From NCBI GenBank assembly GCA_038087875.1, contig CM075993.1, forward strand, positions 6,822,001-6,886,000: a stretch of DNA of 64,000 nt, in the 5' to 3' direction. Every line of letters begins with the position of its first letter. Positions within the stretch are counted from its first letter, which is position 1. Both the position numbers and the translations under genes were made by a program. Source of the DNA: Malacoraja senta. Its lineage: Eukaryota. Positions 5,434 to 57,200 of this stretch are shown here, piece after piece. The notes beneath the pieces were generated by a model, which was not told the DNA's origin, ran no database searches, and saw only the letters and a list, made by a program, of their open reading frames with translations.

Positions 5434-5461
5434 CTGAAGAAGGGTCTCGACCCGAAACGTC
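5434..5461 (+). ncRNA. Minimal hammerhead ribozyme-like core in a Penelope repeat (representative copy)
   Basis: CTGAAGA-A-GGGT-CTCG-ACCC-GAAAC-GTC contains the CUGANGA box, stem II, the GAAA box and a GUC triplet. Confidence 0.65.
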
Positions 5462-6096
5462 ACCTATTCCTTTTCTCCAGAGATGCTGCCTGACCCGCTG
5501 AGTTACTCCAGCATTTTGTATCCATCTTCGGTGTAAACCAGCATCTGAGGTTCCTTCCCACTCATGGTATGGATGCCTAGTTACTCATCAAAATCCCCCC
5601 TTTGGCTCAAAGCAGTTTACCATTCATCTTTGACAGTATCACGCAAAGACTACACTGACACCTATAAATGGAAATTGCAGATAAACTAATAAGGAACTAA
5701 CGTCAGAAAAAAACTTTTTCACAGCTCCGAAAACAGTTTAGATAACATCATGTGCCACTGTTGGGAAAACCTTACTGTCACCACTAGACAAACCAGAGAT
5801 TTTATTCGAAAATATATAAAAGGAACAACTTCCTCATTTGGAGAGTGTTTCAAATTTTGTTATACCTGTCTCAAAATTCTCCAGAACAGCAAGGAACTGC
5901 AGATCCGGATTTATACCAAAGACAGACAACAAATTGATGGAATAACTCAGCGGGTCAGGCAGCATCTCTGGAGAAAATGGATAGGTGATGTTTCGGATCA
6001 GGACCTTCTTCCGTGATTGCTGTTACATTTTGACTAGTGTGCAGGGTATGCCTACTATGAAGAAGTTCTCCTCCTCTCTCTGATCCGAAACATCAA

Positions 6097-6670
6097 CAGG
6101 GCCCTAGTGAGACCACACCTGGAGTATTGTGTGCAGTTTTGGTCCCGTAATTTGAGGAAGGACATTCTTGCTATTGAGGGAGGTTTACAAGGTTAATTCC
6201 CGGGATGGCGGGACTGTCATATGCTGGGAGAATGGAGCGGCTGGGCTTGTACACTCTGGAGTTTAGAAGGAATGGAGGGGATCTCATTGAAACATATAAG
6301 ATTGTTAAGGGTTTGGACACGCTAGAGGCAGGAAACATGTTCCCGATGTTGGGGGAGTCCAGAACCAGGGGCCACAGTTTAAGAATAAGGAGTAAGCCAT
6401 TTAGAACGGAGACGAGGAAACACTTTTTCTCACAGAGAGTTGCGAGTCTGTGGAATTCTCTGCCTCAGAGGGCGGTGGAGACCGGTTCTCTGGATACTTT
6501 CAAGAGAGTTAGATAGGGCTCTTAAAGATAGCAGAGTCAGGGGATATTTGGAGAAGGCAGGAACGGGGTACTGATTGGGGATGATCAGCCATGATCACAT
6601 TGAATGGCGGTGCTGGCTCGAAGGGCCTACTCCTGCACCTATTGCCTATTGTTTATTGTTTATTGTCTTA
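6097..6670 (+). mobile_element. 5'-truncated CR1-clade LINE (HER1-like)
   Basis: Encodes [13 protein letters not shown]...RTRGHSLRI...LWNSLP, with a 3' UTR ending in TATTG-type repeats. Confidence 0.9.
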
Positions 6671-6802
6671 TTACCTATCCATTTTCTTCATGCTGCTGGA
6701 GCTGCTGAGTTACTCTAATATTTTGTGTCTCTTTGAGAATCTTTGGAGCTCGGCCCAAAGCTCCCTTGTCTGAATTGACTGGAGTCATTTTAAGGTGGGG
6801 AG

Positions 6803-7336
6803 TAAGGTTGCCAACTGTCCCATATTAGCCGGGATATCCCGTATATCGGGCTAAATTGGTGTGTCCCGTGCGGGACCACCCTTGTCCTGTATTTGACTGC
6901 TACTACTCAGGTCGAGGGGGACTGTCGGGTCGGAGCGCCGTGTCCGGCCCCCGCCTCACCCGTCCCGACGTAGTGCAGCCCATGGAGTGCAGCAGCAGCA
7001 GCAGCGCCTCGCCCATGGCCCCGTCGGTCGGGAGCCCGGCCAGCCGTCCAACCTTCGGACCTTCGCTTACCGCCGACACCACCACCCCTCCTTCTCATGG
7101 CCGATCATCGGTTCATGAGTTGGACGGGACGCTGGACTTTGCGCGTAATGTCACGCGGCCCGGGCCAAAACTCCTCAGCTGGGCCCGCCGGCTGGGCTTT
7201 GTGTGCAGTCCAGCACCGGGGCCAACTCATCATTCACCCAGCCACGGCCGAGTCGGTCAACGAGTTGCCGTCGGGAATTTGTCCCGTATTTTGACCTTTA
7301 GTCCCTTGTTTGGGAGTGGGAAAGTTGGCGACCCTA
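6803..7336. mobile_element. hAT-like MITE
   Basis: TIR TA(A)GGTTGCCAAC...GTTGGCGACCCTA; 8-bp TSD GTGGGGAG/GTGGGAAG. Confidence 0.82.
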
Positions 7337-7489
7337 GTGGGAAGATGCATGTAAGTTAACTACCTGGGATCTTTCAAGTGAGAAGTTAAACTCTGGGACC
7401 TCTTTTCCTCCCTCTCTTGGGTCGTACTTTAGGGACATGGGGGTTTCTGCAGGGAAACTCACTATTTGTCCGCCTTGGCCTACGCGATC

Positions 7490-8050
7490 TCCCGGTTGCC
7501 CAACACTACCTCCCCTTCCCATTCCCACACTGACCTTTCTGTCCTGGGCCTCCTCCACTGTCGGAGTGAGGCCCAGCGCAAATTGGAGGAACAGAACCTC
7601 ATATTTTACTTGGGCAGCTTGCACCCCAGCGGTATGAATATTGATTTCTCTAACCAAGTAACCCTTGCATCCCCCCTCTATCCACCCCCCCCCCTCTCTC
7701 CACCCCCCACCCGAGTCAGCCAACTAGTTTCACTGTTGCCCTGCTTAGTTTCACTTGTTGTCTCCCCTCATTATCACCTTCTCCACAGCCAACAATGGAC
7801 CATTGTGGGCTCCAACTTTCCTTGATCATCTGGCTGGCTTTGATTTGTTCTTTGCATAACTTTCATTCATTTGTTCTTTATACCTTTTCATACCTCTAGT
7901 TTCTTTCTCCCCTGTCTCTCAGTCTGACGAAGGGTCTCGACTCGAAATGTCACCTATTCCTTTTCTCCATAGCTGCCGCCTGACTCGCTGAGTAACAGCA
8001 TTTCGTGTCTATCTTCGGAGTAAACCAGCATTTGTAATTCTTTCCTACGC
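7490..8050 (+). mobile_element. Penelope-like element 3' fragment
   Basis: SPSHSHTDLSVLGL...LGSLHPSGMNIDF, then the 3' repeat with CTGACGA...GAAATGTC. Confidence 0.8.
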
Positions 8051-8079
8051 AACCTAATTAATTGGAAGACCTTTGGGAC

Positions 8080-8925
8080 ATCATTCTGGTCATCATGTTA
8101 TTGGAAAGATGTTGTCAAGCTGGAAAGGGTACAGAGAAGATTTACAAGGATGTTGCCAGGACTCGAGGGTCTGAGCTGTAGGGAAAGGTTAAGTTGGCTT
8201 GTACTTTATTCCTTGGAACGCAGAAGGATGAAGGGTGATCTTATGGAGGTGTATAAAATCATGAGAGGAAAAGATCGGGTAGATACACAGAGTCTCTTGC
8301 CCAGAGCAGGGGAATCGAGAACCAGAGGACATAGGTTTAAGATGAGGGGGAAAAATTCAATAGGAATTGGAAGGGTAACTTCTTACACACAAAGGGTGTG
8401 GTGGGTGTATGGATCAAGCTACCAAAAGAGGTAGTTGAGGCAAGGACCCACACCATCCTGGCCACACACTCATCTCCCGCTGCCTTCAGGTAGAAGGTAC
8501 AGGAGCCTGAAATCTGCAACATCCAGGTTCAGGAATAGCTGCTTCCCCACAGCCATCAGGCTATTAAACTCAACTCAAACAAAACTCTGAACATTAATAG
8601 CCCATTGCACTTTATCTGATTATTTATGTGTATATATATATTTATAGTATATGGTCACACTGATCTGTTTTGTAGTCAATGCCTACTATATTCTGTTGTG
8701 CTGAAGCAAAGCAAGAATTTCATTGTCCTATCTGGGACACATGACAATAAACTCTCTTGAATCTTGACTATCGTGACATTTAAGGAATAGTTAGACAGTT
8801 ACATGGATAGGATAGGTTTGCTGCCTAATGCAGGCATGTGGGACTAGTGTGGCTTGGACATGTTGGCTGGTGTGGGCAAGTTGGGCCGAAGGGCCTGTTT
8901 CCATGCTGAATCACTCTATGACTAT
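8080..8925 (+). mobile_element. CR1-clade LINE 3' fragment interrupted by a Rex/Babar-type tail (about 8453-8768)
   Basis: ORF 8150-8434 contains ERRRMKGDL...RTRGH. The CR1 tail resumes after 8768. Confidence 0.75.
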
Positions 8926-11900
8926 CGTGTGGATATGGGAAACTATAAAAATACGACAAAAAAAGCTCTCCCCTTCCCACTCAGCTTCCCTTCCCCTTTA
9001 TGATAATCATGAGATAAATCTTGCATGTTTTGTTTCACATGAAGTAATGTCAAAAACTAGAGTAAAGTTGAATTTAATGAGGAAGGAATTCTCTGCCTCA
9101 TTGGAGGCCAATTCTCTGGATGATTTCATGAGAGAGTTAGATAGAGCTCTTAAAGATAGTGTAGTCAGGGGATATGGTGAGAAGGCAGGAACGGGGTACT
9201 GATTGTGGATGATCAGCCATGATCACAGTGAATGGCTGATCACAGCTGGCTTGAAGGGCCGAATGGCCTACTCCTGCACCTATTGTTTATTGTCTATTTT
9301 AACCAGATAGAGTTGTGTTAGAGCACTGAATGCCTGACCAAGTAAAAAAACTCAAAAGAGTGCATAAGGCTCTGATGGTGAGAAAGCATCAGATAGGGAC
9401 CCAAGATTTAATTGCAATGAAACAATTTTGAATTTTCTAACAATTAGCTATAAGGAGAGGATGTCCGAACTTGGATTGTTTTCTATGGCTGAGAGGAGAT
9501 CTGGTAGAAGTATATACGGTTAGTTTAGAGGTAACAGGCCCTTCGGCCCACCGAGCTCACATCGACCAGCGATCCCCGCACACTAACACTATCCTACACA
9601 CACTAGGGACAATTATAATTACAATTACACCAAGCCAATTAGCCTACAAACCTGCACGTCTTTGGAGTGTGGGAGGAAATCGGAGCTCCCGGGGAAAACC
9701 CACGCATGTCACGGGGAGAACGTACAAACTCCGTACAGACAGCATCCGTGTTCAGGACCAAACCTGGGTCTCTGGCGCTGTAAGGCAGCAACTCTACCGC
9801 TGCGCCACCATGCCGCCCTATGGGAGGCATAGATAGGGTAGACAGTCAGAACCTTTTTCCGAAGATGGAAATGTCAAAGACTAGAGGGCAAAGCTTTAAG
9901 GTGAGAGGACCAAAGTTTGAAGAAGAAGCGCGGAGAAAGTTATTTTGTTCCACAGAGGGTGGTGGAATACACTGGCATTGTGGTAGTTGAGGTAGATATG
10001 AGAGTGGTACGTGGTGGAAAGACATTGTCAAAACTGAAGATAGACACAAAATGTTTCTAGTCGAGACCCTTCTTCAGACCCGAAACATCACCTATTCATT
10101 TTCTCCGGAGATGCTGTCTGACCCGCTAAGTTACTCCAGCTTTTTGTGTCCAACTTCCGTTTAAACCAGCATCTGCAGTTCCTTCCTACACGGAAAGACC
10201 TGGTCATGTGGAGAATGTGCAAACTCCACAAAAAAAAAGTGTCTGACGCCATGTTGGCAATTAACTGTATCTCTTCCATATCTCTCGTTTTCCTCTCCCC
10301 TGAATTTCAGTCTGAAGAAGGTGTCTCGACCCGAAACGTCACCCATTCCTTCTATACAGAGAATCTGCCTGATCACATGCCTGAGTTACTCCAGCATTTT
10401 GTGTCTTATCTTCTGGTAAGATACATACAGGACCACGTCAGAAGGTAGTTTGATATACCTGCCTTGGTGGAGGTGTCAATTTACCAAAGAACGGCAGCCT
10501 CACTGATATTACTAATGGTGAGCAAGTTTCTCTGATCCTTGGCATAAAGCTATTGTAAGTCTGCCTTTCCCCACACGCCACCCCAGCATAGTGGCATGTG
10601 GAAATTCCCAATGATGCCACGATTACTCATAGACTCAGCAACTGGGTCGAAGCATGCTGCTTTAGTGATGTGAAATCCCCCCCCCCCCCCCCCAAGTGTA
10701 TATGGATTTTAAAATATTCAATGAGCTAACTTTTAAAGGAATGAAAAAACTTTCCTTAAAGGGCACATTTCACAATCGCAAGGCATCCATAAACATACAC
10801 ATCCAAAGAATTGTGTAGGAAGGAACTGCAGATGCTGGTTTAAACCAAAAGTAGGCACAAGGTTACTGGAGTAACTCAGCGGGACAGGCAGCACCTCTGG
10901 AAAGAAGGAATAGGTGGCCTTTCGGGTCGAGACCCTTCTTCATCCAACCGCTTGTTTCACCTTGGACAAATTGTATGCAGCAGAATCCTTCATGTAAATA
11001 ATTCAATCCCTCTCGAATAAATAGTAGCAACAAGGAACTGCAGATGCTGGTTTACAAAACAAAAACACACAAAGTGCTGGAGTAACTCAGCAGGTTCAGG
11101 CAGCATCTGTGGAGAACACGAACAGGTGATGTTTTGGGTTGGAGACCCATCTTCACATTGATTTTCCCGCTTGACCCAAAAAGTAATTTGAGTTTCACTG
11201 TTAATTGGGGCACGTGACAATAAACTGACCTTTGAACCTTTGAAAGGTCACCCATCCATGTTCCCCGGAGAAGCTGCCTGACCCGCTGAGTTACTCCCGC
11301 ACTCTGACTTTTTTTTCCTCCTCTGTAATATTTTCGTGAAGCCAACTTTTTATTGAAGGGTGGATGACTTATTGCTCCTGTTTTCGTAGCGCATTCATGT
11401 TGTCTGTCAAGACATATATAGCAAGGCCTCGAGAGTTCCATCAAAACCTATCATGAACATGAGAATAGGAGCAGGAGTAGGCCACTCGGCCCCTCAAGCC
11501 TGTCCTACCATTCAGTATAATCAGGGCTGATCTACCCTTGGCATCAACCTCTCCACTGAGCTAGTCCCTAGTGGCCTCAATTCTAACATCTTTCAAAAAT
11601 GAGTCTACTTCCGCTTTCAATGAGGCCAATGATCGCAGCCGTCTTGGGTCAAGAATTCCAGAGATTGACCACCTCTGTGAGAAGTTCAAGTTCAAGTTTG
11701 TGTTTATTGTCACACGCACCAATTAAGGTAGAGTGATATTTGAGTTACCATGCAGCCATACTCAGTGAAACGCAACAATGCACACAGCCACATAAAATAC
11801 AATTTAACATAAACATCCACCACAGCGGGGTGCACATATTCTCACTGTGATGGAAGGTAGTGAAGTTCAATCATCTTCCTCTTTGTTCACCCGTGGTCGG

Positions 11901-12861
11901 GGCCGTTGGACGCTCCCGCATCTTACCACCAATCGGCCACACCACACCACCCCAATCTTGCAGCAATGATCCTTGTTCAAGATTTTCCCGAGACCTTTTG
12001 TGATTCACACACAATAACACCTAGATCCTTATTTCAATTCAATTCATCTGAACTTTACCCATTTTTAGTCTCTTTTCATTTAGATGATGATTTTTTTTTT
12101 TCTGGGACTGAGGAAGGGTTCAGCCGAAATGTCACCTATTTCTTTTCTCCAGAGATGCTGCCTGACCCACTGAGTTGCTCCAGCACTTAGTGTCTATCTT
12201 CGGTATAAACCAGCATCTGTAGGTCCCTGTGGAAGAAAGAACTGCAGATGCTGGTCTAAACCGAAGACAGACACAAAATGCTGGAGTAACTCAGCGGGAC
12301 AGGCGGCATCTCTGGAGAGAAGGAATGGGTGACGTTTCAGGCCGAGACCCTTCTTCCGACTGAGAGTTTGGGGCAAGGGAGACATGGGGATAAGGAAGGG
12401 TACGGTGTGAAAACGAGACATCAATGGGGATGGGGATCAAGGAAAATGTAGAATAGATCGTTGTTAGCTGGGGGAAGGTGACAATGAAGCATACAGAGAT
12501 AAAATTTGACAACGACGGAAACGGGTCTCGACCCGAAACGTCACCCATTCCTTCTCTCCAGAGATGCTGCCTGTCCCGCTGAGTTACTCCGGCATTTTGT
12601 GTCTATCTGCAGATCCTTCCTACACAATCAGTTTTATTTTATTCATCTTGACAAAGTGCATGACCTCACACTTTGCAACGTTAAACTTCATTTGCTGACT
12701 TTTCACCCGCTCACTCAGCCTAGCTACATCTGTCACTATCTATATCTTTCACTATCAATAGCCCACAGTTACAATATCCTCCTCATTGCAACATGTTTTT
12801 TTCCATCTATTTTGATGTTGTCACCAAACCTGGGTACCATAAATTCTTCCCTGGCCTCTAA

Positions 12862-13242
12862 AGGGCCTGTCCCACGGGCAGCATGCGACTCCATGCGGCA
12901 AGCGCGACCTAACCGCAAGCGGGGGCCGCGCGGAGGTCCCGCTTCGATCGCCGGAGCCGTATGGAGTTGTGCGGAGCTGGTCGGCTCCGAAAAACTGACA
13001 CTGTTCAAAAATTCCGTGCGGGAACGGCCTGCCGCCCCGCAGCCGCCTCGCCGCCATACGCACCGTCTTGACGTCACTCGACCTCCACGCGGCCCCCGCT
13101 TCCGATTTGGTAGCGCTTGCCGCATGCAGCCGCATGCTGGTGGGACCAGCCCTGTACGGGGATCACTCGACCTCCGCGCAGCCCCCGCTTGCGGTTAGGT
13201 CGCGCTTGCCGCATGGAGTCGCATGCCCGTGGGACAGGCCCT
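12862..13242. mobile_element. PIF/Harbinger-like MITE, GC-rich, with about 75-bp TIRs
   Basis: Termini AGGGCCTGTCCCAC...GTGGGACAGGCCCT; TSD TAA on both sides. Confidence 0.85.
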
Positions 13243-14622
13243 TAAGTCACTGCATTAATAACTGAGGGCCATGAACTGATCCCTGGGATAATCTATTAGT
13301 TGCATCCTCCAACCTGAAAACGACTCCATCTATTCCACACCTCTCTACTTTCTAAGCGTCAACCAGTTTTCAATGTTATCCCATTCGGTTGCTGTCCCTT
13401 AAAACCTTTCCTATCCATGTATCTGTCCAAATGTCTCTTAAACGCACACATTGGTAACTGAGAACTATTCCAATGTCCGTCTGCGGTCGGTAGGTCTAAA
13501 TCCTGAGTCACCCTCCTCAGCTGCATCGTTTAGTGTAGTTTGTGGAGATGACGTCACCACAAGGACCGCATCAGTTTCAGAGGATAGATACAACATGCTG
13601 GAGTAACTCAGCGGGACAGCCAGCATCTCTGGAGAGAAGGAATGGGTGACGTTTCGGGTCGAGACCCTTCTTCGGACTGAGAGTTTGGGGAGAGGGAGAC
13701 ACAGAGATAAGGAAAGGTACGGCGTCAAAACGATACCTCAATGGGGATGGGGATCAAGGGAAATGTAGAGTAGATCGTTGTTATCTGGGGGAAGGTGACA
13801 ATGAAGTACACAAAGATAAAAGTTGACAATGAGGCAAAAGGGTCGTGACCCGAAACATCACCCATTCCTTCTCCCCAGAGATGCTGCCTGACCCACTCAG
13901 TTACTCCAGCATTTTGTGCCTATCTTCGATGTAAACCAGCATCTGCAGTTCCTTCCCACACATCAGTTTAAAAGGGTCGTCACCACAATATTCACACAAT
14001 GCATCTAAAGAATTGAAGGAACTCAGCGAGTCAGGCAGCGTCTCTGGAGAATGTGGATCAGTCACGTTTCGACTTGAGACCGTTCTTCGGGGGGGGAGGG
14101 GAAGGGGGGGAGGGTTTTGATGGTTTGATGTTTTTGAGGCCAGAGATTTAAACTTTGGACTTTATTTTGGACTTTGGAGATACAGCACGGAAACGCCCTT
14201 CAGCCCACTGTGTCTGAGCCGACCAGCAATCCCAGTTCACTACCCTACACAATAGGGACAACTTATCAATTTTACCAAAGCCAATTAACCTGCAAACCTC
14301 TACGTCTTAGGAATGTGGGAGGAAACTGGAGCACCCGGAGAAAACCCACGTGGTCCCGGGGAGAACATACAAACTCCATACAGACAACACCCGTAGTCAG
14401 GAGCAAACCAGGGTCTGTAAGCATTGTAAGACAGTAGCTCTGTCACTGCACCACCCTGGAAAACCAGAAGGTGTGTGACAAAAGGATTGAGGGGTTGCAA
14501 ATTGTGAAGCCAGAGGAAGGAATGTAGGATGAGGGGGTGGGAGAAATAGGTGTCAAGGGGGAGGGGCATGGATGGGGGAGAAAGGGGTAAGTCACCTGAA
14601 CTGGAGAATTCACCGTTTGAAG

Positions 14623-15003
14623 CAAAGATCCTATAGCGAGCAAGATAGCCCACTCGACGTAGTACGGTCATGGGCAGATTCATGGGTAATTTAAGGCCCC
14701 ATTCCGTAACCGGCTTCCGTCTCCACACCAAAGATCCCATAGCGGAGCAAAGATACCAATGCGGAGACGGAAGCCGGTTACGGAAACATCCTCGTAAAAC
14801 TAAAAGTTATTTGGTAAAAATCTTCTCCTCATTTTCAGAATTATAATTTATTAACACAAACTGTCCCCCCGCAACGTTGATTACACTGCGAGTCGGGTCG
14901 GGTCGGGTTACTGAAATGGATGAAAAAAAGGCCCAAGTTCCGCTCCGTTGCGTACTACACGTCAGCCCATTGCATTTAGCAGGAGTGGTCTATAGGATCT
15001 TTG
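14623..15003. mobile_element. Putative TIR element (possibly hAT)
   Basis: 14-bp perfect inverted termini CAAAGATCCTATAG/CTATAGGATCTTTG; flanks GTTTGAAG/GTTTAAAC match at 6 of 8 positions. Confidence 0.55.
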
Positions 15004-15301
15004 GTTTAAACATCAGACAAAGTGCAGTGTGCTGACATGATTTCCGGGCACATTGTTGGGTCTTATTGACGTCTGAATCTGAAGGTCCTGGGCTGAAGAA
15101 TGACTCCACTGCACCGACCTTAAACCCTGCAATGGGGGGAACGTTGGACTGCTGGGGCTGCCCACTTATAGGGGTTAAAGCAAACACCAGCGAGGGGAGG
15201 TGCCCACTTGATAACCCCAATAACAAACTTACATCTACATGTTTAGATTTTTTTTGTGTGCTTGTTCACATGTAGGTAGTTGATTATTACACAAGGAGTT
15301 A

Positions 15302-15519
15302 AGGGCCAGTCCCACTTTCACAACCTAATTCACGACCTCTGCCGAGTTTGCCCTTGACTCATACTCGCAGCATGGTCGTCACGAGGTCGTAGATAGGTCG
15401 TGATGCTAGTCGTACGTACTCGTGGCATCAAGTAGGTCGGGGCGTTTTTTCTAGCCTGATGAAAAATGTCCACGAGTAAAAAAGGTAGTGAATTAGGTCG
15501 TGCAAGTGGGACAGGCCCT
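15302..15519. mobile_element. PIF/Harbinger-like MITE (short form)
   Basis: AGGGCCAGTCCCACTT...AAGTGGGACAGGCCCT; TSD TTA. Confidence 0.85.
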
Positions 15520-15826
15520 TTAGTTATTGTCCTTCACATAAGTTTGTATAACCAGTTTAGATAGTACTCTGGCGTTGGGCTTGGTTTTCTGGGTTGAGTG
15601 CTTATCCTGGTGTCATAGCACAAGTACTTTGTATTTTAATTGTAATTTTTAATCCCGTGGTGTAGTTTGCAAACATTCTCCTGACCAATATTTATTCCCA
15701 AGGGAACAATGTTGGCCCCACTTGCAAAGCCTGCATCCAAAAATCACGGAAAGAATCTGGTGACTTTATTGAACGAGTTTGTGTATTTGGAACTTCAGAG
15801 AAGCCTTTGCTGTCTGCATCAAGGGG

Positions 15827-16090
15827 TGGGGTTGCCAACTGTCCCGTATTAGCTGGGACATCCCGTATTTTGGGTTAAATTGGTTTGTCCCGTACGGGAC
15901 TGCCCTTGTCCTGTATTTGACTGCTACTACTCGGGTCGAGGGGACTGTCGGGTCAGAGTGCTGCGTCCGGCCCCGCCTCACCGACGTAGCGCAGCCCATG
16001 GAGTGCAGCAGCAGCAGTGCCTCGCCCATGGCCCCGTCGGTCAGTCAGCAGCCCGGCCAGCTGTCCGACCTTCGGACCTTCGCTTACCCG
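15827..16090. mobile_element. Truncated copy of the hAT-like MITE
   Basis: Collinear with 6803-7070, then breaks into a Penelope-like repeat. Confidence 0.75.
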
Positions 16091-17375
16091 GGCCAAGGTC
16101 CGGGCCAAGGACCTTTCTTCAAACTGAAGATGGGTCTCGACCCGAAAAGTCAGCCATTCCTTCTCTCCAGAGACGCTGCCTGTCCCGCTGAGTTACTCCA
16201 GCATTTTGTGTCTATCTTCGGTGTAAACCAGCATCTGCAGTTCCTTCCGTCAACAAAGCAGTTTTGCCTTCTCTCAGTTTTCTTTGTTTTGACTTATCCA
16301 GACCTCTCTAAATATCCCATCTGGCCTGATATTACTGAAACGTTCCTGCAAACATCCTGCCAGAAACCAGTATTGCCCAAGAATAACAGGAACCCCTTTG
16401 TTAACCTTTGACCGCTTCCTATATTTATGAGAAAACTGGCAGTGTTTTTTCCTGCAGAGACCCTGTTTCTTAGAAACCTAGTTCGCTGAAAATAGTTTTC
16501 CATTTGACATCTGTTCACTGCCAACATTTTTTATTTCACTATTGGCCATGAACTGAGTATACTCGGAGGTGGCACTGAACAGGTTCAAAGTAATCAAAAT
16601 GTGTCGGAAAGAACTGCAGATGCTAGTTTAAATCGAAGATAGACATATAAATGCTGGAGTAACTCAGCGGGACAGGCAGCATTTGTGGAGAGAAGGAATG
16701 GGTGACATTTCGGCTCGCGACCCTTCTTCAGACTGCAAACCTACAAACCTCGCTCTCCCTCTGACTTCGAGCTGACCAGCTCTCTTCTCTCTTCGGGTGA
16801 GTGTCCTGCCACCTCAGCAAGAGCTCAACTTGAGCCCACGAGGCAGCAGCCTCACAGTTGCAACAATGTTTGTGTTTGAGGACTAAACGTGCACGTATAG
16901 CAAGTCAAGGCAGGTTTATTTGTCACATACACATACAAGATGTGCAGTGAAATGAAAAGTGGCAACGCCTGCGGATTGTGCAAAAACTACACAACAGAAC
17001 AGAACAGAATCAGTATTTACATGTTAGAAAACCCCCCCAGCAAATTTAAAAGAGACAACACAACAGTAATTAGTCCCTGGTGAGATAAGAGTTTATAGTC
17101 CTGATGGCCTGTGGGAAGAAACTCCATCTCATCCTCTCTGTTTTCACAGCGTGACAGCCAAGGCGTTTGCCTGACCGTAGCAGCTGGAACAGTCCGTTGC
17201 TGGGGTGGAAGGGGTCCCCCATAATGTTGCCGGCTCTGGATCCAACCTATAATGCCTGAATAAAGAAACCGTTTATTCACAACGTTTGGTGCCTCTACAC
17301 TAGCATAACTTAGCTTGAGGGTAAGATCACCCCTCATCCTCCTGCGCTCCAGGGAAAAGAGTCGCAGCCTGCTTA

Positions 17376-17902
17376 AGGGGCTGTCCCACTTGGGTGACCT
17401 GATCCGCGAGTTCTGGCGAGTTTGCCCTCAACTCGTACTCGCAGCATGGTCGACACGAGGTCGTAGGAGGTCTTTGTAACTCTCCTTCATGCCTGAGAGT
17501 GGTCTCCGCGTACTCGAGGCCTCAGCTAGGTCGCGGCGTATTTTTTTACGTTGAAAAATGCCCGCGAGTAAAAAAAGGTCGCCATGGAAAAAATCAATAC
17601 TTTTTTCCTCGTAGATTTAGTCGTAGTAGGTCGTAGTAGGTCGGCATGTTAGTCGTAGGTAGTCGAGGGTAGTCGAAAGTAGTCGTAGATAGTCTTCATC
17701 ATAGTCAAAGGGAGGTCGAAGGAGATCAAAGGAGGTCGTCTTCACTCTCCACTATTCGGTGTCCAATTTTCCCGAAATTAGTCGTAGCTAGTCGAAGCTA
17801 GTCTTCAACATAGTCGAAGGAGGTCTTCAACATGACATTTTTTCAAACTCTCCTAAACCCTTCTAAACTCGCCAATTAGGTTGCCCAAGTGGGACAGCCC
17901 CT
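17376..17902. mobile_element. PIF/Harbinger-like MITE (long form) inserted in a CR1 fragment
   Basis: AGGGGCTGTCCCACTTGGG...CCCAAGTGGGACAGCCCCT; TSD TTA. Confidence 0.87.
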
Positions 17903-45200: not shown

Positions 45201-48200
45201 AAAATGCTGGAGTAACTCAGCAGGTGAGGCACTTTCATGCTGGGGTCACCCAAAACATTGCCCATTCCTTCTCCCGCTGAGTTACTCCAGCATTTTGTGT
45301 CTACCTTCGATTTAAACCAGCATCTGCAGTTCTTTCTTACACAGATATGTAAACATAATACTCTATAGACAATAGGTGCAGGAGTAGGCCATTCGGCCCT
45401 TTGAGCCCTAAAACCCATAATGAAAACAAAAAGTTTAGGATATATATAAAACAAACAAATAAATAGACAAATAAATATGCCCTCGTCTATATAGTTTTGA
45501 GCCTATTTGGTGGATGTAGTGCTTAATAGCCTGATGGTTGTAGGGAAGATGCTGGATGTGATAGTTTTCAGGCTCCTGTACCTTCTTCCCAAAGGATGTG
45601 GATCATGTGTAGGCAGATGAGATTAGTTCATCTTGTCATCATGGTCAGCATGGACATGGTGGGCTGAAGGGCCTGTGCTGTTCTGTGTTCTATGTCTCAC
45701 ACCGAGGCAGCTAGACGCCTGCTTAAGTGGTTGGGGTCGGCAGTGATATCTTTGTGTGAAAGTGGCAAATTAGTCGGATGGGTCAGATAATGTTGGAGAG
45801 GGTTCCTTTCAAAAAGGCGTAACTTTTCTAAATCGGACAGCGTGGGCAGACAGTGAGATGAGAAAAGTAGACATCCGTCTGCTACGTGCAGTTGCTGTCG
45901 ACTGGCCCCAGTTGGAGTGACAGAGATGGGAGACACAACAGCAGCAGCAGCTGCTGTTGTGTACTATTTCTGGCTTGCCACTGTCTCACCTCTGTGTTTG
46001 GCGACAGGGATGGAGAGAAAGAGGCAGATGCACAGGGAGAGAAGGAGAACCATGCGTGTTTGTTGCCTTGGGTTATTTCTGCAGACACCGTTGGGACATG
46101 TAGGTCAATGGAGAGGAGAGACAGTTGTTTTACACACATTGGCGTTTCAGCTGCGTAAGGAGGAACTGCAGGTGCTGGTTTAAACCGAAGACGGACACAA
46201 AAAGATGGAGTAACTCAGCAGGACAGGCAGCATCTCTGGAGAGAAGGAATGGGAGACGTTTCGGGTCGTGACCCTTCTTCAGTCCGAAGAGAAGGAATGG
46301 GTGACATTTCGGGACAAGACCCTAAACGTCACCCATTGCTTCTCTCCAGAGATGTTGCCTGTCCCACTGAGTTACTCCAGTTTTTGGTGTCTATCTTTGG
46401 CATTTCAACATTTTTTTTTAGCTGAAAAAATACCAGACCCCGTATGCATGAAGTTGCATTGAATATACAACAACGAACTGCTACATAGCCCAATGCAGTC
46501 ACAATGTCATAAAATGGAACTGCCGATGCTGGTTTACACCAAAGATAGAAACAAAATACTGGAGTAACTCAGCGGGTCAAGCAGCATCTCTGGAGGTTTT
46601 ATATTTAGTTTAGAGATACAGTGCAGAAAGAGCCCCTTTGGCCCACCAAGTCCGCGCAGACCAGTGATCCCCGTACACTAGCACTATGTTACACACTAGG
46701 GACAATTTACATTCTTTACTGAAGCCAATTAATCTACAAATGTGTACGTCTTTGGAGTGTGGGAGAAAGCCGGAGCACCCGGGGTAAACCCACGTGGTCA
46801 CGGGGAGAACGTGCAAACTCCGTACAGGCAGGAGGCGCAGTCACGATTGAACCCGGGTCTCTGGCGCTGTGAGGCAGCATCTCAAATGATTATAGTTGCT
46901 GAAGGTTCTGAAATCATCTTTAAAATTGGTATACCAAGAAAAACGCTCCCACGCCAAGGACAAAAATGTGGACATCTAATATGTCAGAACTGTTACACCT
47001 AGAAGATATGAGATTCCTCCCAGCAGGTAAACCAGACCATTTCCAAAAGATTTGGTCTCCATTTATCGACATATTACAAATATAGGGTGCAACAAAATGT
47101 TGATAATAAATGGTTTGAGGACCTGGCGAGGGGTGAGTAAAGATATGAAGTATGTACATCCCTTTTGTCTTATCTTATCTTTTTTTTTTTTTTTCTCTTT
47201 TTCTTTCTTTTGTTTTTTCTCTTTTGTTTAACTCTTTCTTGTGGTTTAGGTCCCTATGGGTGTTCCTGGACCACTCTTTCACTCACTCACTTACTATCTT
47301 TGCTAACTCTCTCTATCCTTTTTCTTATTAAAGTTTTAAAAAAAGAATTAAAAAAAAAAATTAAAAAAAAAAAAATTGGTATACCACGCAGCATGTCAAG
47401 GAGGTGGTAAAAAATATCCCAAAGTGGGGGCTCTTAAGGGTCATGATGAGAGTGATCGCAGTGGAAAGAGTGTGTAGATGGTCGCTATAAAACAGGACCT
47501 TTGTAGTGCATGTGATCTCTCTGTTTGAAGATCTGGTCTGGGTGCATTTCTCTTTTCTTCTTGTCATTCGCCAGCTCTCTTCTACTACGCTGGGCATGGC
47601 TACGAGAGCTCAGGACGGAACTACATGGTGCCGGTCAATGCCCCCAACCCGTACAGGCCCGAGAGCTGCATCAATGTCCAGAAGATCCTGTGCAGGATGC
47701 AAGAGAAGAACACAGCCCTCAACGTTATCCTACTGGATATGTGCAGGAAATGGTACGGCCACAAGCTCCTCTTCTCTCTCTGGGATATTCAAAACTAAAT
47801 ACAAAATCCGTGTAAAACCACAAAGCGCTGGAGTCATTGAATGGGTCAGGAAACATCTGTGGAGGGCACTGTCCGTCAGACTGATTGTAGTAGGGGGGAG
47901 AAAGCTCGAGGAGAGGCGGGGACGGGACAAAGCCGGGCAAGTGGTAGGTGGAATAAAGGACACAAAGTGCTGGGGTAACTCAACGGGTCAGACAGCATAT
48001 CTGGAGAACATGGATAGCTGATGTTTCGGGTCAAGGTTCTTATTTAGACTCAGTCCCAGTCTAAAGAACCTGAAACATCTCTGATCCATGTTCTCCAGAG
48101 ATGCTACCTAACCTGCTGAGTTCCTCCAGCACTATCTGTCCTTATGTGTGTTAACCAGCATCTGAGGTGCCTTGTTTCTACAAGTGATATGTATAGGAAG

Positions 48201-51200
48201 GAACTGCAGATGCTGGTTTACACTGAAGATAGACACAAAATGCTGGAGTAACTCAGCGGGACAGTCAGCATCTCTGGATGGAAGGAATGGGCGACGTTTC
48301 AGGTCGAGACCCTTCTTCAGACCCTTGCGGGTCAAGACCCTTCTCAGTACAAGTGATAGGTGGATACAGGTGGAGTGGATGGGGCTTGGTTGTCAGATGG
48401 GTAGAGTAAAGGGCCTGTCCCACTTAGGCGATTTGTTTAGGCGACTACAGGCGTCTAGGCTGTCACCGGGGTGTGGCCTGTATGGTCGTGAGTCGTCTCC
48501 TCAGTCGCCCAGAGAGTCGTAGCATCTTTCTAGTTGCCGCTGGATTTTCAACATGTTGAAAACTTTTCGGAGGTAGTCAGCGACAGTGGGTTTGAAGCCA
48601 ATGAGCGTAGCTTGACTTCTCCTGACGTAGGTGCTGTCGTAGTTGTCGCCAGGTTAACATAGGTTGTCGCCGGTGCTGACTTGGGTTTTTTTTTGTTAAA
48701 GTAATGATTCTATTTCAAATTTTATGTCGAAGGGGGGTCCAGTCGCCGTTTTTTCGGCGACGTGCTATGACAATGACAATCGCCGGCAGTCGCCTAAAAA
48801 CAGCCTAAGTGGGACAGGCCCTTAAGTGACAAAAGCTATAGATGTAAAAGACACAAAAGGGTGTTAGATAATGAGTGAAGAGCAGTGAAATGTAAAGCCC
48901 CTGTCCCACTTTCACGACCTAATTGGTGACATCTGCCGAGTTGGCCCTTGACTCATACTCGCAGCATGGTCGCCACGAGGTCGTAGGAGGTCTTCGTAAC
49001 TCTTCCTCGTGCTCGTGAGTGTTCTCCGCGTACTCGTGGCCTCAAGTAGGTCGTAGCTTTTATTCCAGCCTGATAAAAAATGTCCACAGGTAAAAGAAAG
49101 GTTGGCGTGGAAAAAATGGATACTTTTTACTCGGAGGTAGGTCGTAGTAGATCGTGATGGTAGTCGTAGATAGTCGTAGGTCGGTAACTGGCCCGAGAAA
49201 AAAATGCAAACATGACATCATTTGATCATGTGATCATTTTCCACTCGTAGCTAGTCGTAGTTGGTCTTAGGTGTGGAAGACTGAGGTCGAGGGGGGGTCG
49301 TAGGAGGTCGTAGACATAGTCGTAGGAGGTCTTTTACTTCGGCGAGTCAACACGACCTTGACATTTTTTTCACTCGTCTTGGGTCTTCTAAACTCGTGGA
49401 TTAGGTCGTCCAAGTGGGACAGGCCCTCTTTCCCCAAGAGGCTTGAAAGGGGAGAGAGCGGGATAGTTGGACAAATGGAGGTGCACCATTGTGGGGGTGG
49501 TGCACAGGAACGAGAGGGGTGAGGAAAGGGGGGTTGTGTACCTACAATTGGAGACTCCAATGTTCATACCGCTGGGCTGTTTGCACTGTCAGGGTCCCTC
49601 ATTCAACTAATAGCATTGGAGGAACTAGTGTGTGCATGTGATAATGAAAGCTTATAAGACCATGATGGGCATAGATAAGATGGATTGTCACAGTCTTTTT
49701 TTCCCAGCGTAGAGGTGTCACAGAGTAGAGGGCATAGATTTAATTTGAGAGGGGGTAAGATCGAAAAGGACCCGAGGGAAAGTTTTTCACAGAAGGTCGA
49801 GGGTATATGGAATGATCTGACAGAGGAAGTGTATAAAGGGCCTGTCCCACTTTCACCACCTAATTCACGACCTTTTTTACTCGTGGACATTTTTCATCAG
49901 GTTGAAAAAACGCCCCGACCTACTTGATGCCACGAGTACCTACAACTAGCATCACGGCCTTCTACGACCTACCTACGACCTCCTACGACCTCGTGACGAC
50001 CATGCTGCGAGTATGAGTCAAGGGCAAACTCGGCAGAGGTCGTGAAAGTGGGACAGGCCCTTTAGAAAGAACTGCAAGATGCCGGTAAAATTGAAGGTAG
50101 ACACAAAATGCTAGAGTAACTCAGCGGGTCAGGCAGCATCACTGGAGAGAAGGAATGGGCGATGTTTTGGGTCGAGACGTCGCCCAATCCTTCTCTCCAG
50201 AGATGCTGCCTGACCCGCTGAGTTACTCCAGCATTTTGTGACAGAGGAAGTGGTAGAGACAGGTACAATGATAACATTTAATAGACATTTAGGCAGGCAC
50301 ATGGATAGATAAGTTTATTTTAGAGGGATATGGGACCAATGCTGGCAAATGGGGCCAGCTCAGGAAGGCACTCTGGTTAGCATGGGTGAGTTGTGCCGAA
50401 GGGCCTGCTTCCTTGCCATTCCATTTTATGACTTTAAAATGAGGATTAAGATCAAGCTCTCAGTGACGTGGATATTATTTGCTTTTTAAAATCCTATCTA
50501 AGTGCTTATGCATAGCGACATTTGCACTGATCTGTACATAAAACTGAATTGCAATGTACTTGGGTACGTGAAACATAAAATTTCATTGACCATTGGTAGT
50601 CAGAACCTGCAATCTAACATCTGATATTTTGGACCGTACTGTAAAATACTTTCATTCTTCCCATGAATATTCCGTACTATATCCGGACAAGCCTTTCACA
50701 TTCCTGAAATTCCTGCCTCCAGATTATGGAGGAGCACCACAGGATTGTTTTCTTAGCATTGGCAACTTGGCAGACATTTCCTAATTGGGGTTTTTGTTAG
50801 CACTGTTAGAAATCAAGTGCTAACAGTCAATAGGGCTTTTTATTGTCACATATGTTCATTGTTGAGTTTCTCCAGCAATTTTGTCTACCCACAGTTTAAG
50901 AATAAGGGGTAGGCCATTTAGAACGGAGATGAGGAAACACTTTTTCACCCAGAGAGTTGTGAATCTGTGGAATTCTCTGGCTCAGAAGGCAGTGGAGGCC
51001 AAAATCTCTGGATACTTTCAAGAGAGAGTTAGATAGACTCCTTAAAGATAGCAGAGTCAAGGGATATGGGGAGATGGCAGGAACTGGGCACTGATTGTGG
51101 ATGATCAGCCATGATCACAGTGAATGGCGGTGCTGGCTCGAAGGCCTGAATGGCCTACTCCTGCACCTATTGTCTATTGTCTATTGTTAACCCAGTGAAA

Positions 51201-54200
51201 TTCTTGTCCTTAAGAGTCTGTCCCACTTGGCGATTTTTTTTGGCGACAGCCGGCGTCATATCAGTGTCACCAAAAGATTTTGAACATTTCAAAATCCAGC
51301 GGCGACAAAAAAAATGTTTTGCGACACTTGAAAAAACACCGCGCGTCATACGTCATTACGCCGTGAATTTATCGGAGACCTGATACGCCAGTCAATGGTC
51401 ATGGCGGTCGGCGAAAAAATCGGCAAGTGGGACAGGCCCTTAACAAACAGTCCGGTAGCGTATCACCGTACCCACGATCAGCACGTGTCCAGGAATAGTC
51501 CAATGAGCAGCATGCGGGAGGCGCCATCTTTTGGCGGCCATGTTCAAAGTCCACGCTATGGTTTAGTTTAGAGATACGGCACTGAAAATGAATCACACAA
51601 TGAATCACACAATCTTAACAAGGAAACAAGAAGGTTAAACCAGAAAACCGTGATGGGTTACTCATTAGTGGGAGGGGAAAGACGGGAAGCTGTTAGGAAT
51701 GCAAAACAGTGCATTATGTGAAATCATTAATGGAATTACACAAACTTATCATGGATTTATCAAAGGGATTTATGAAAGGTGTGGTGTTTACCCCAGCAGA
51801 GTCTTTGATTAGTTTTCGTTTTAGAGATATAGCACGGAAACAGGCCCTTCGGCCCACCGGGTCCGCGCAGACCCAACGATCCCGGCACATCAACACCATC
51901 CTACTCACACTAGGGACAATTTGCACTTATACCAAGCCAATTAACCTACAACCTGTACGTCTTTGGAGTGTGGGAGGAAACCGAAGATCTTGGAGAAAAC
52001 AGGTCACGGGGAGAACGTACAAACTCCGTACAGGCAGCACCCATAGTCGGGATCGAACCCGGGTCTCCGGCGCTGTAAGCGCTGTAAGGCAGCAAGTCTA
52101 CTGCTGCGCCACCGTGCCGCCAAGTTCTTACATGCGGTGCCTGTACTAGGCAAGTCCCAGGCTGTTGCGGGCCTCCAGACATCGCCTACATTGGGCTCAA
52201 CATCCCTCTCCTCGCCCTCCTTTGTTACCCGGGAGGGGGGGGGGGGAGGACCACCAGTAATCCTGACTCCTTGGGTGGTGGTTTTGTAGTTAACCAATCA
52301 CCACCCAGAATATCAGCAACAAAGAATTCCCCAGCCTTCCTCTACAACGACCCTACGCCCAGAACAACTGCAGGCCCTTGTGACTGCCCCTGGAATTAGT
52401 GCTACACTTTGACTTTCTCTCGCTTTAGCCTTGTACAAATATTAACATGTTTGGGAGTAGGGTTGCCAACTTTCTCACTCCCAAATAAGGGACAAAAGGG
52501 ACAAAAGGTCAAAATAAGGGACAAATTCCCAACGGCAATTCGTTGACCGACTCGGCCGTGGCTGGGTGGGTGAATGATGAGTTGGCCCGAGTGCTGGACT
52601 GCACACAAAGCCCAGCCGGCGGGCCAGCTGAGGAGTTTTGGCCCGGGCTGGGCAATGTCCGGCACCCCGTCCAACTCATGAACCGATGATCAGCCGTGAG
52701 AGGAGGGGTGGTGGTGTCGGCGGTAAGCGAAGGTCCGAAGGTCGGACAGCTGGCCGGGCTGCCGACCGACCAACGGGGCCACGGGCGAGGCGCTGCTGCT
52801 GCTGCTGCGCTCCATGGGCTGCACTACGTCGGGACGGGTGAGGCGGGGGCCGGACACGGCGCTCCGACCCGACAGTCCCCTCGACCCGAGTAGTAGCAGT
52901 CAAATACGGGACAAGGGCGTTCCCGTATGGGACAAACCAATTTACCTCAATATACGGGATGTCCTGGCTAATACGGGACAGTTGGCAACACTATGTGGGA
53001 GACTCCAACAATTTCATAAATCCCTGCATTTATTTTCCAGGTATAACCAGGATTACCTTCCCTCTGATCTGCAGCCACTTGCACCCACTGGGAACATTGT
53101 TTATGGATATGCAACGTAAGTAGCATCCCGGGGTTCGCTTCAGGAAGTAAATGCCACCCCCTCCTCCCCTCTTCCCATCTCTTCCTTTCTCTTTTTGTCA
53201 CTCTCTTTCATTTGCTCTATTTAAAAACATAGAAAATAGGTGCAGTAGGCCATTCGGCCTTTCGAGCCAGCACCGCCATTCAATATTATCATGCCTGATC
53301 ATCCAAAATCAGTACCCTGTTCCTGCTTTCTCCCCATATCCCTTGATTCTGTTAGCCCAAAGAGCAAAATCCAACTCTCTCTTGAAAGCATCCAGTGAAT
53401 TGTCCTCCACTGCCTTCTGTGGCAGAGAATTCCACAGATTCACAACTCTCTGGGTGAAAATGTTTTACCTCATCTCAGTCCTAAATGGCCTACCCCTTGT
53501 TCTTAAACTGTGACCCCTGGTTTTGGACTCCCCCCAACATGGGGAACATTTCTCCTGCATCTAACCTGTCCAATCCCTTAAGAATATTATACTTTTCTCA
53601 CATCATCACTTAACATTGGTGATATCAAATGTTCAGATCAACACTGCACAGGACACTGAGACTGTATGCAGTTTGACAGTGTCCAGAAATGGACAGTCTG
53701 AAGAAGGAAATCGAACCAAAATGTCATCCGTCCATGTTCTCTAGAGATTCTGCCTGGCCCGCTGAGTTACTCCAGTACTTTGTGTAAACCAGCATCTGCA
53801 GTTCCTCTTTTCTATCTCATGACTGGGTCTCCCTCGTCGTAGAACGTGGATTGGAATTGAAAAGGACCATGAAAAGGAACCTTTTGTCTCGAATCAAATC
53901 CATATTAAACGCTGGACTGTTCATTTTCAGTGTTCTCCCTCCTCATCCCCCTCCCATTCTTGTGGCATGCCCATTTCTCCCACTTTCCCGCCCCTTTCCC
54001 CCTCCCTCCGGCTTCACGTTTCACCACTCCTCTCTCCTTTATCTGACACCCTTTTTCTCATTTTCATCTCTAGCCTTTGTCCACCCATCTGCCAATTGAA
54101 ACCTCTCTCACCTGCATCCACCCATCACTCTTGTCAGAAAGAACTGCAGATGCTGGTTTAAATCATAGACACAAAATGCTGGAGTAACTCAGGCAGCGAG

Positions 54201-57200
54201 ACTCTGGAGAGAAGGAATGGGTGACGTTTCGGCTCGAGACCTTTCTTCAGACTGATGTCAGGGGAGTGCATCCACCCATCATTTGCCAGGCTTTGTCCTA
54301 CCCCTACCTTTTTCCAGCTAGCTCCCCTCCCCCCCCCCCCCTCCTACAATCAGTCTGAAGAAGTATTCCGACACGATATGTCGCCTGTCCATTCCTCCAG
54401 CACTTTGCGATCTACTCAAGATTCCAGCATATGCTGTTCCTTGGAGTCTCCATTTCTCCGTCCCACCAATTAGCCTCTGAACGTGGCTTCAGAGACTCTC
54501 TGTCATCACAGAACGTGAATTGGAGTTGAGGAAGACCACTGTACCTCCCGGGCCTGGAATCACCATGTTCCTCGGACTCTGGCGACTTGATCAAATGTAT
54601 TCCCTTCACCTCTCACCTTTGAAACACAATGGCCTCGAACTGCCAACATTTCAACTCCTGATCTTCTCTCCATGAACCCACTTGCCTCTCCTTCCTCCTT
54701 TGTAAAACCTGCCCAGGATGACCAGGTGTGTCCTGACGTAGCAAACAAACCCAGTTGTGGTTAATACACAAAAGTACATAAAGTGCTGGAATAACTCAAC
54801 TGGTCATGCAGCATCTGTGGAGAACATGGAATGGTGACGTTTCAGGTCGAGACCTTTCTTCAGACTTTGCCTTAATTCTTTAAGTTTGTCCTGATGCTCC
54901 ACTCAAAAATTCAGTGTTATCCATATATCGATCTCAGCTGTTAACATTTTCTTTGGCCTCTCAGGTTCAGTAGTATTGGGGGGGGAGAAGAGTGCGGCAA
55001 GGAAGGAACTATGTAACATAGAAAATATTTGCAGGAGGAGGCCATTTGGCCCTTCGAGCTTCTGTAATTCTACTTTTCCCTATAAGAGCTAGCAGAAGAA
55101 AACTCCAAAGTTGTAGAAACAAAGAACTGCAGATGCTGGTTATGAAGAGACTCCAGGCTGGCATTAGAATTCCCTGTACAATTCAGCAATTGCCTTTCAG
55201 ACAGTTTGTAGGTGGAACAGATGGACTTCAAGTGACCTTACTGCCATGCCTAAGAGTTGCAACAAAGGATTAAAATTAACGAGTCTATAAAATGTCAGGG
55301 ACATTCCTAACAAGTTGTATATTTGACTTCCACTGCTCCCCAGAGTTTATTGATTACCAGGAACCTGCCTCAGGCACAAACACACCCCTGCTGAGTCCAT
55401 GGCCATCACAACTCGACTTCATTTAAGGTTGAGCCAGCCATGATCAACAAAAGCATCTTATCACTGCTGGTGAAGACTGATGTACTCCCACCTTCTGCCG
55501 ATAACTAAGAAAGATCTGTTTTGTTTCTGTAACGCCTATTATGACCTCGCGAGTACTTGTTGATGAGGGATAACGGTTTTAACCAGGCAAACATGTCGGT
55601 CAAGTTACAGGTTGCAAAGTTCCACACACACACACACTCAAATGTGATGCTATCTGGTTAATCTAATAGAGCGAAACTTTTTTGTGGTCATAGAAAGCAT
55701 TCCTGTTCTTCTATGAATCAGTGCAATGGGATCTTTACCATCCAATTTAGGATTAAAATGGGGCTTGATTAAAGGGCACTTACGCGACACTTACACGGGC
55801 GACTGCCGCCACCCGTGATAGGTCGCCAAAATTTTCAACATGTTAAAAATTCAGCGGCGACCAGAAAGACACTACGACTCTTTGGAGACCTCCCACGACC
55901 ACGGTCGCCAGGGGTCGCCTGTATGGTTGTGAGAGGTCTCCTATGGTTGTGAGAGGTGTTGAAGATTTCAACATGTTGAAAATTTCGCCGATCTATGGCG
56001 TATTCCGGCAGTCACCCGTAACGGTCGTGTAAGTGCGACAGGCCCTTTAACATCCCACCTGATGTTACTACAGGGCAGCATTGAGCTGACACTCCAAGCC
56101 CACCCAAGTCACAAGCAGAGAGTGCAGTCATTCAATGACAATATACACCAGGTACCAAAGGACAGCTAGCATCTGTAGAATAGGAATAGACAACTGCGGA
56201 TTAGCCACAGCTGCGGTTACCGTAACATTACCAGATTTTGTAGAAAATCCCTTCTGCCTGCTGATGTGGTACAGATTATTTTCTTTCCCTCGAGCTTAGA
56301 CCAAGATTAAAAACCATCTGCACACATCAATAACAAAAGGAGTTTCCCAACAAAAACATACACTCAAAGGTAAAAAGAACTGCAGATAGACACGAAATGC
56401 TGGAGTAACTCAGCGGGACAGGCAGCATCTCTGGAGAGAAGGATTGGGTGACGTTTCGGGTCGAGACCCTTCTTCAGACTGATGTCAGGGGAGAGGGAGA
56501 TACATTGATAAGGAAGTGTGAGTTGTGAAACCAGGACAAAGGGGGTGGAGATTAAGGAAAATGTAGAATAGATCAATGATATCTGGGAGAAGGTAACAAC
56601 AAAGCAAAGGTATCAAAGGTCCTTTATTGTCACGTGTACCAATTAATAATAATAATAATAATAATGGATGGGATTTATATAGCGTACAGTGATATTCGAT
56701 TAAGGTACAGTGATATTCGATTTATGAGATGAAATGTAGTCAGAGACAGTCAGACTGGTCAGAGAACTGGGAAGGGGGAGCGGATGGAGAGAGAGGGAAA
56801 GCAAGTGCTACTTGAAGTGAGGGAAGTCAGTGTTCATACCGCTGGGGTGTAAGCTGCCCAAGCGAAATATGAGGTGCTGTTCCTCCAATTTGCGCTGGGT
56901 GGGCCTCACTCTGACAATGGAGGAGGCCCAGGACTGAAAGGTCAGTGTGGGAATGGGAGGGGGAGTTAAAGTGTTGAACAACCAGAGAAGTGCAGATGCT
57001 GCAACCTTAAATAAAAGCTTAAAATGTTGGAAATACTGAGCAGCCCGGGCAGCATCTGTGGAGAGAGAGTTTGTGTTTCAGGTTCCCGCTGAAGGTGTTT
57101 CGGACCTGAAATGTTGGCTCGGTTTCTCTGTCCGCAGATGCTGCCCGACCCGCTGAGTGGTTCCAGCATTTTTAGATATTTGAATAAAATGCACACGTTC

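Follow-up and report, generated by a model that had tools for sequence, protein, structure and literature searches.

Why should the introns of a paracaspase gene be sown with hammerhead-ribozyme motifs? The question is raised by a stretch of 64,000 nucleotides from Malacoraja senta (contig CM075993.1, positions 6,822,001 to 6,886,000; hereafter the window). In it, an initial inspection of the letters alone (the sequence-only reading) had noticed many copies of a short repeat with a hammerhead core, and had proposed that sense copies pair with one another in a single pre-mRNA, so as to cleave the intron or release retrozyme-like small RNAs. In our view the repeats are probably fragments of the pseudo-long terminal repeats (pLTRs) of an abundant, endonuclease-bearing Penelope-like element (PLE) with a minimal type I hammerhead (min-HHR), and lie inert in the paracaspase introns.

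Positions within the repeat are counted from the first C of the hammerhead core, taken as 0, which places the cleavage site between +27 and +28. The repeat unit is about 150 nt long with the motif at its 5' end, and a profile search recovered 83 fragments of it in the window (Table 1). At all 19 positions named in the sequence-only reading the motif is present on the strand given there, the antisense positions being those of its 3' end. The descriptor search for min-HHRs that had been called for gave 12 matches in the window (five plus, seven minus) against none in each of 30 dinucleotide shuffles, and 33 matches in 599 kb around kinase exons elsewhere in the genome; Rfam at its gathering score matched no hammerhead family in the window, only U6atac. 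Genome-wide the strict intact motif is found in 43,687 copies and its reversed control in none. With 82 fragments in 64 kb, versus 272 in 599 kb at the kinase loci, the repeat is about three times as dense in the window, which lies on a small contig of 12 Mb. Many copies are mutated, as had been cautioned: one in the window fits the strict pattern and four fit it when G-U pairs are tolerated, all of them antisense.

From which element do these fragments derive? Remnants of a GIY-YIG endonuclease indeed lie just 5' of three copies, at 7511-7654 (+), 20632-20889 (+) and 56982-56814 (-), the YIGET motif being retained only by the second. The endonuclease remnant at 20557-20892 yielded 89,407 first-look candidates genome-wide, and through a reverse transcriptase (RT) piece adjoining one of these we reached full-length elements that are young and nearly identical. 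One of these, located outside the window (L102), is intact and consists of a pLTR, a single open frame of 1,233 residues and a second pLTR; the frame has the motifs DKG and YIDD, a CX4CXXC linker and YIGET, and thus combines an RT with a C-terminal GIY-YIG domain. Homologues have RT domains, some of them also GIY-YIG, and Pfam GIY-YIG matches on related frames fall just below the cut-off (E 3e-4 and 1e-3). The hammerhead is present in both pLTRs of L102 and of four further full elements (L104, L105, L108 and L113). It is placed about 120 nt past the endonuclease stop in most subfamilies, after a pyrimidine-rich stretch that is very variable in length and sequence, and in the 5' untranslated region (UTR) of the element, whose first ATG follows about 137 nt later. 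A zinc-finger-like linker of the CX2-5CXXC type precedes the endonuclease (residues 1100-1108 of protein P0121); such a linker is common to the Neptune and Nematis clades (PMC8557442; comparisons with published systems, here and below, draw on excerpts of the cited papers). The element is likely an endonuclease-bearing PLE of the Neptune clade, with the caution that the linker motif is the single character behind the clade name. A strong motif resembling a 5' splice donor overlaps the first ATG of the intact frame (L102:1881-1891), and the N-terminal part of the element protein is long, proline-rich and different between copies.

By all the sequence features tested, the motif is the known minimal hammerhead of the pLTR of endonuclease-bearing PLEs. 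It has the core (CUGANGA, GAAA and an NUH cleavage triplet), the hallmarks of an unpaired base between A9 and stem II and of a G10.1-C11.1 pair, and a vestigial helix III with the palindrome ACGU (15.2-16.2) in the majority sequences of all three subfamilies, A, B and C, into which the copies cluster. The type I core, the extra base between A9 and 10.1, the G10.1-C11.1 pair and the palindrome at 15.2-16.2 are shared with the PLE min-HHRs of PMC4209133, so that the Penelope-type hammerhead with a palindromic vestigial stem III suspected in the sequence-only reading matches the published features; shared, too, are the presence in both pLTRs and the genome-wide occurrence mostly as single truncated copies. 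Stem II has 4 bp here versus 7-8 in Schistosoma, and helix I, for which the earlier caveat proved correct, has only 2 bp with a predicted pairing probability of about zero, versus typically 4-5 bp and 2 bp in D. virilis; the roughly 43,700 intact copies compare with about 4,000 in coelacanth and about 9,000 in Xenopus by the descriptor of that paper (PMC4209133). The class is already known, and the helix I sequence places our motif at its short extreme. A longer stem I through distal pairing with GAUG or GAGA further downstream was rejected, as the register differs between subfamilies and a conserved hairpin occupies that stretch. Also rejected was a type III fold in which cleavage would fall upstream of the core, a complement to ACGUC being present only in the upstream sequence of one subfamily.

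Is the hammerhead kept by selection? Between subfamily majorities none of 22 core and stem positions varies, versus 19 of 65 downstream positions (p=0.002). Five subfamily changes fall within the motif: two affect loop II, two turn A-U pairs into G-U, and one turns C17 into U. All are tolerated by hammerheads, and this restriction of changes to tolerated positions fits selection on the transposon. Judged by these comparisons, the hammerhead is probably under selection at the level of active elements. Several points weigh against this. A double compensatory change is absent from every stem, so that, of the core conservation and stem II covariation across subfamilies that had been proposed as a test, the former was observed and the latter was not. 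The p value is optimistic because the subfamilies were defined in part by roughly half of the 19 downstream positions that vary. Finally, N7 and 9.1 do not vary either, although the ribozyme puts no constraint on them, and constraint on a promoter or protein-binding site could therefore explain part of the conservation.

It is conceivable, though we consider it doubtful, that even in active elements the motif is no longer a ribozyme and is conserved as an internal promoter (an initiator plus a downstream element over ACGT) or as a site of protein binding. The invariant free positions, the lack of compensatory changes and the failure of structure prediction to find the active fold would all fit such a role. 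The ACGT is situated 27-30 nt past the inferred RNA start, near the place that the RGACGTGY motif takes in D. virilis Penelope; that motif is described in PMC2377424. In the Anolis element, hammerhead mutants did not reduce insertion in vitro (PMC11167929). What speaks for a ribozyme instead is that all five subfamily changes obey hammerhead rules, C17 to U and both A-U to G-U replacements among them, and that the motif has an additional base following A9 and a G10.1-C11.1 pair, as min-HHRs typically do.

Once inserted, the cores are under no selection and decay at the rate of the flanking DNA. Among 123 unselected copies, mismatches amount to 71 of 1,205 in the core and 293 of 4,318 downstream (p=0.29), and the catalytic G12, which is part of a CpG, has become A in 32 copies versus 24 at a control CpG; genome-wide, 8,126 copies are otherwise intact and have lost G12 to A. 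We treat the 123-copy comparison as the unbiased test and set aside pooled core-versus-flank rates (lower in A, higher in B), because those loci had been chosen by exact patterns.

Might sense copies nevertheless base-pair via the ACGU palindrome, so that the paracaspase intron is cut or retrozyme-like RNAs are set free? The core, stem II and palindrome fit the min-HHR design, the core is kept in several sense copies, and min-HHRs are known to cut weakly as dimers, as tandem Schistosoma min-HHRs do in vitro (PMC4209133). Set against this, the window holds no fully intact sense copy, G12 is lost freely, and the sense copies are kilobases apart. Neither did the depletion of sense copies that had been suggested as a check emerge: in the paracaspase gene, together with 796 kb surrounding kinase exons, sequence-competent copies are 22 sense and 26 antisense, the others 197 and 189 (p=0.54). 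In the folds predicted for six contexts the active stem II has a pairing probability of <=0.01, as nearby pyrimidine runs capture the purine-rich core, and the active dimer reaches only about -6 kcal/mol versus -22 to -30 kcal/mol for alternative folds. Furthermore, the Anolis PLE hammerhead cuts only with the protein of the element (PMC11167929). We therefore regard intronic cleavage as highly improbable. Two limits of the strand test count against this verdict: the 95% interval of the sense share is 0.31-0.61, with which a mild depletion is still compatible, and most kinase-exon flanks were assumed to be intronic, only some lying between two mapped exons.

The copies are likewise unlike host-adopted or tandem ribozymes. 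Amniote intronic hammerheads such as that of RECK share the type I fold and the intronic location, but are conserved canonical motifs at orthologous sites (PMC6155905), whereas ours are decaying multi-copy insertions on both strands; the core is not conserved above neutral level and the sense orientation is not favoured, as a domesticated intronic hammerhead would have it. Animal non-LTR retrozymes are non-coding, derived from PLE pLTRs and equipped with a type I hammerhead, as are our repeats, yet form tandem arrays with one hammerhead per unit (bioRxiv 10.64898/2026.07.22.740005). Here, contrary to the expectation of retrozyme-like small RNAs, we find inversions and dispersed solo pLTRs with target-site duplications rather than tandem units. 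Tandem arrays of 2.45 kb were considered as retrozymes and rejected, being tRNA gene clusters with an old insertion. Two such tandem arrays of about 2.0-2.45 kb (L151 and L152; G000:C1, at about 3.87 and 4.01 Mb) contain genes for tRNA-Ala(AGC), tRNA-Ala(TGC) and tRNA-Arg(ACG), and each unit has a solo pLTR insertion that has been amplified and shows an 11-bp duplication. The repeats are thus likely inert passengers in the paracaspase introns.

How did so many short copies arise? Their 5' ends were placed in a sample of 325 copies, after 16 of 92 doubtful non-inverted copies had been reassigned to the upstream class. Starts at -7..+2 account for 101 copies (10.1 per nt) and starts at -60..-11 for 16 (0.3 per nt). 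No pile-up is seen at the cleavage site in this sample, the 14 starts at +26..+30 (2.8 per nt) being equal to neighbouring bins. In the young subfamily B (n=72), which has 28,936 exact genome matches to a 38-mer, 43 copies start at -6..+13, four at -130..-7 and another 19 beyond that on the 5' side. The cliff in start positions falls on TCAGT, a motif common to all three subfamilies that resembles a polymerase II initiator. Before starts at -3, G stands at 1.5 times background relative to A (5,978 versus 6,260), compared with 0.6 times at a control junction (769 versus 1,864); locally, G was counted before 6 of the 12 starts at -3 and before 5 of the 11 at -2. This excess at -3 fits the copying of an RNA cap. 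Short duplications of the 5' end occur at 6 of 140 junctions versus one in the control. Taken together, the junction sequences suggest that the solo copies are run-off cDNAs from uncut 5' ends of the element RNA.

Weighing on the other side, the G excess is of modest size; one subfamily inflates the T counts, deletion variants inflate the A counts at the control junction, and a G can also derive from 5'-end duplications. The pile-up spreads over 10-20 nt instead of marking a single base, and inverted copies with the junction on a near-palindrome contribute 28 of its 101 starts. That the peak is an artefact of missing subfamily references proved partly true, but it stayed after the reassignment of the 16 copies. 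Among those listed, loose contig ends in four runs fall at about -6..-2, +92..+95 and +128; these are the same DNA boundaries, and such contigs cannot show RNA starts, ends or cleavage.

Could the boundary be a 3' splice site, the polypyrimidine tract being followed by CAG directly before stem I, such that splicing would remodel stem I? In all endonuclease-bearing copies inspected a long pyrimidine tract does end in CAG right before the motif, and there is a precedent in D. virilis Penelope, whose intron ends at helix I (PMC4209133). However, a search for a common spliced exon 1 before the solo copies found none, and where flanks were shared, they proved to be inversions or else upstream UTR in the genomic sequence of other subfamilies; fillers between duplication and element are mostly 1-25 nt and unrelated; starts do not peak at -1; and the young subfamily lacks a GT donor at the endonuclease stop. 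We thus judge splicing an unlikely source of the boundary. A somewhat better, though still not favoured, possibility is that RT stalls, or that second strands join prematurely, at RNA structure around the core, and that the pile-up does not correspond to the genuine 5' terminus of an RNA. In predicted folds the purine run of the core pairs with the pyrimidine tract that lies upstream, and inversion junctions cluster on palindromes at -5 and in stem II, as stalling might predict; but the boundary is a sharp cliff near -7, on the 5' side of the motif, the G excess is confined to the -3 junction, and the 5'-end duplications suggest a jump after run-off.

The remaining structure of the copies conforms to PLE practice: partial tandem pLTRs, inverted 5'-truncated copies and an optional tail of 30-40 nt are all seen. 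The 3' ends cluster near +92 and +128, with and without this tail. Target-site duplications of 10-17 bp surround many solos; an exact repeat of at least 10 bp flanks 32 of 200 anchored copies, some of these not being true duplications. An inverted neighbour was scored for 70 of 325 copies, and many copies are head-to-head inversions. In subfamily B a stem II variant (L104:1661-1675) forms a 6-bp alternative hairpin that swallows the core GAAA, and B inversions cluster there. At L044, L079 and L195 a solo start at -3 or -5 is fused directly to the internal open reading frame of the same element, reflecting either insertion into older copies or template jumps. A further locus (L035:4174-4520) comprises seven head-to-tail 50-nt units spanning core to +48, with stem III decayed in most, which could stem from slippage or repeated template jumps.

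Much of this has parallels. Anolis Poseidon PAc likewise has two 3' end sites about 36 nt apart (a 'tail'), roughly 65-100 nt past the cleavage site as here, and makes copies from uncut RNA (Frangieh et al. 2024, PMC11167929). In PAc, however, the hammerhead overlies the start codon, whereas ours is in the 5' UTR; the PAc protein differs in the linker, and the excerpts of that paper describe no clustering of solo 5' ends where the core begins. Our element shares with D. virilis Penelope and with Adineta PLEs a promoter and initiator-like motif in the pLTR (TCACT in Adineta), partial tandems, head-to-head inversions on junction palindromes, and target-site duplications. In D. virilis the start lies some 120 nt upstream of the hammerhead and an intron separates the two, compared with an inferred 3 nt before the core here, and Adineta solo pLTRs were ascribed to recombination or deletion, whereas many of ours have their own duplications (PMC2377424, PMC3846280, PMC8557442).

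We envision a scenario whereby the element RNA would start at the initiator-like TCAGT just before the core and RT would prime at the internal sites +92 or +128, much as an Anolis PLE primes internally in vitro. RT would often run off the uncut 5' end, and the short cDNA would integrate as a solo; fold-back or paired run-off products may account for the inversions centred on local palindromes. The hammerhead would be maintained by selection on active elements and would act, if at all, only inside the protein-RNA complex of the element, its folding and cutting requiring a partner copy and the protein. A bolder version, to which we give only tentative credence and which is more probably wrong than right, regards the tens of thousands of solos as integrated 'strong-stop' cDNAs, with capped RNA starting 3 nt before the core and strand transfer rebuilding the pLTR. 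Cleavage in the downstream pLTR might then leave a 30-nt terminal repeat, to which the run-off cDNA could jump, as in retroviral first-strand transfer. If true, the PLE hammerhead would have a specific function, and the shortness of stem I (2 bp) would be accounted for.

The host gene, on the plus strand, belongs to the MALT1 family of paracaspases and has its top protein matches in rays. Its first coding exon was sought in the window and not found, and the copies at 1939-16124 may therefore lie in intron 1 or upstream; those amid the mapped exons (18137-58181) are intronic, as originally stated for all. The U6atac match is antisense within a paracaspase intron and may be a gene or a pseudogene. 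Also abundant is a second family (D10, D14, D16-D20) resembling short interspersed elements (SINEs), presumably akin to the shark/ray HE1 SINE. Many 3' ends of a CR1/L2-like long interspersed element (LINE) occur as well, and the young solo at 57680 is inserted in one of them.

Table 1. Coordinates of repeat copies, host exons and other features in the window.
Feature	Position	Strand	Remarks
All 83 repeat fragments (span)	1923..61190	both	42 plus, 40 minus among 82 scored with a second profile
Paracaspase exons (approximate)	18137-18274, 23091-23216, 26794-26910, 29597-29650, 32697-32726, from ~35249, 47574-47771, 53042-53116, 58056-58181	+	
Sole strictly intact min-HHR	56448..56479	-	antisense to host gene; 2-bp stem I, CUGAAGA, extra A, 4-bp stem II, GAAA, palindromic ACGU, C17
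5'-truncated element end, subfamily A	56378..56982	-	endonuclease C-terminal remnant, long pyrimidine-rich 3' UTR, min-HHR, downstream pLTR part
5'-truncated element end	20632..21078	+	GIY-YIG remnant (73% identity to intact element protein), 3' UTR, min-HHR at 20988 with broken stem II pair
5'-truncated element end	7511..8046	+	endonuclease remnant, long UTR, min-HHR at 7924, stem III CpG decayed
Solo, start at -2	48195..48322	-	antisense; intact except a G-U pair; 11-bp target-site duplication; short duplicate of own 5' end
Solo	54752..54866	-	antisense; core intact (G-U tolerant)
Head-to-head inverted pair	19546..19727	both	minus copy core intact (19641-19672); 12-bp duplication flanking
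Young subfamily B solo, start at +2	57680..57775	+	core incomplete; 13-bp target-site duplication, one extra G at 5' junction
Inverted pair	5361..5566	both	plus copy at 5434 has core, stems II and III; lacks stem I 5' arm
Sense copy at 10312	10296..10420	+	1-nt insertion in stem II; upstream of first mapped exon
Sense intronic solo	19015..19114	+	core, stems II and III intact; stem I down to one wobble pair
Sense intronic copy	31580..31718	+	stem II pair broken
U6atac small nuclear RNA match	44691-44812	-	79 bits, E 2e-17
SINE-like family, examples	443-671, 4996-5308, 51814-52116		
LINE 3' ends, examples	36585-37208, 40352-40786, 61589-62134	+, +, -	
Assembly gap, 200 bases of N	38841-39040		intronic

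A search of supplementary files 2-3 of PMC4209133 yielded no shark or skate entry, and a literature search outside most subscription journals returned nothing on cartilaginous-fish PLE hammerheads, solo run-off copies, or strong-stop or cap-G signatures in PLEs; file 1 of PMC4209133 and the bioRxiv tables, both outside that search, may list cartilaginous-fish motifs.

What does this locus teach? As a feature of the host gene, the repeats are ordinary transposon debris. Their value is that of a large natural data set on the role of the Penelope hammerhead and on the regeneration of the pseudo-LTR: the genome offers about 29,000 near-identical young copies next to intact full-length elements, with junctions that suggest an origin from uncut RNA and a single, testable start site. 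The junction pattern is thus a useful and testable lead on Penelope replication.

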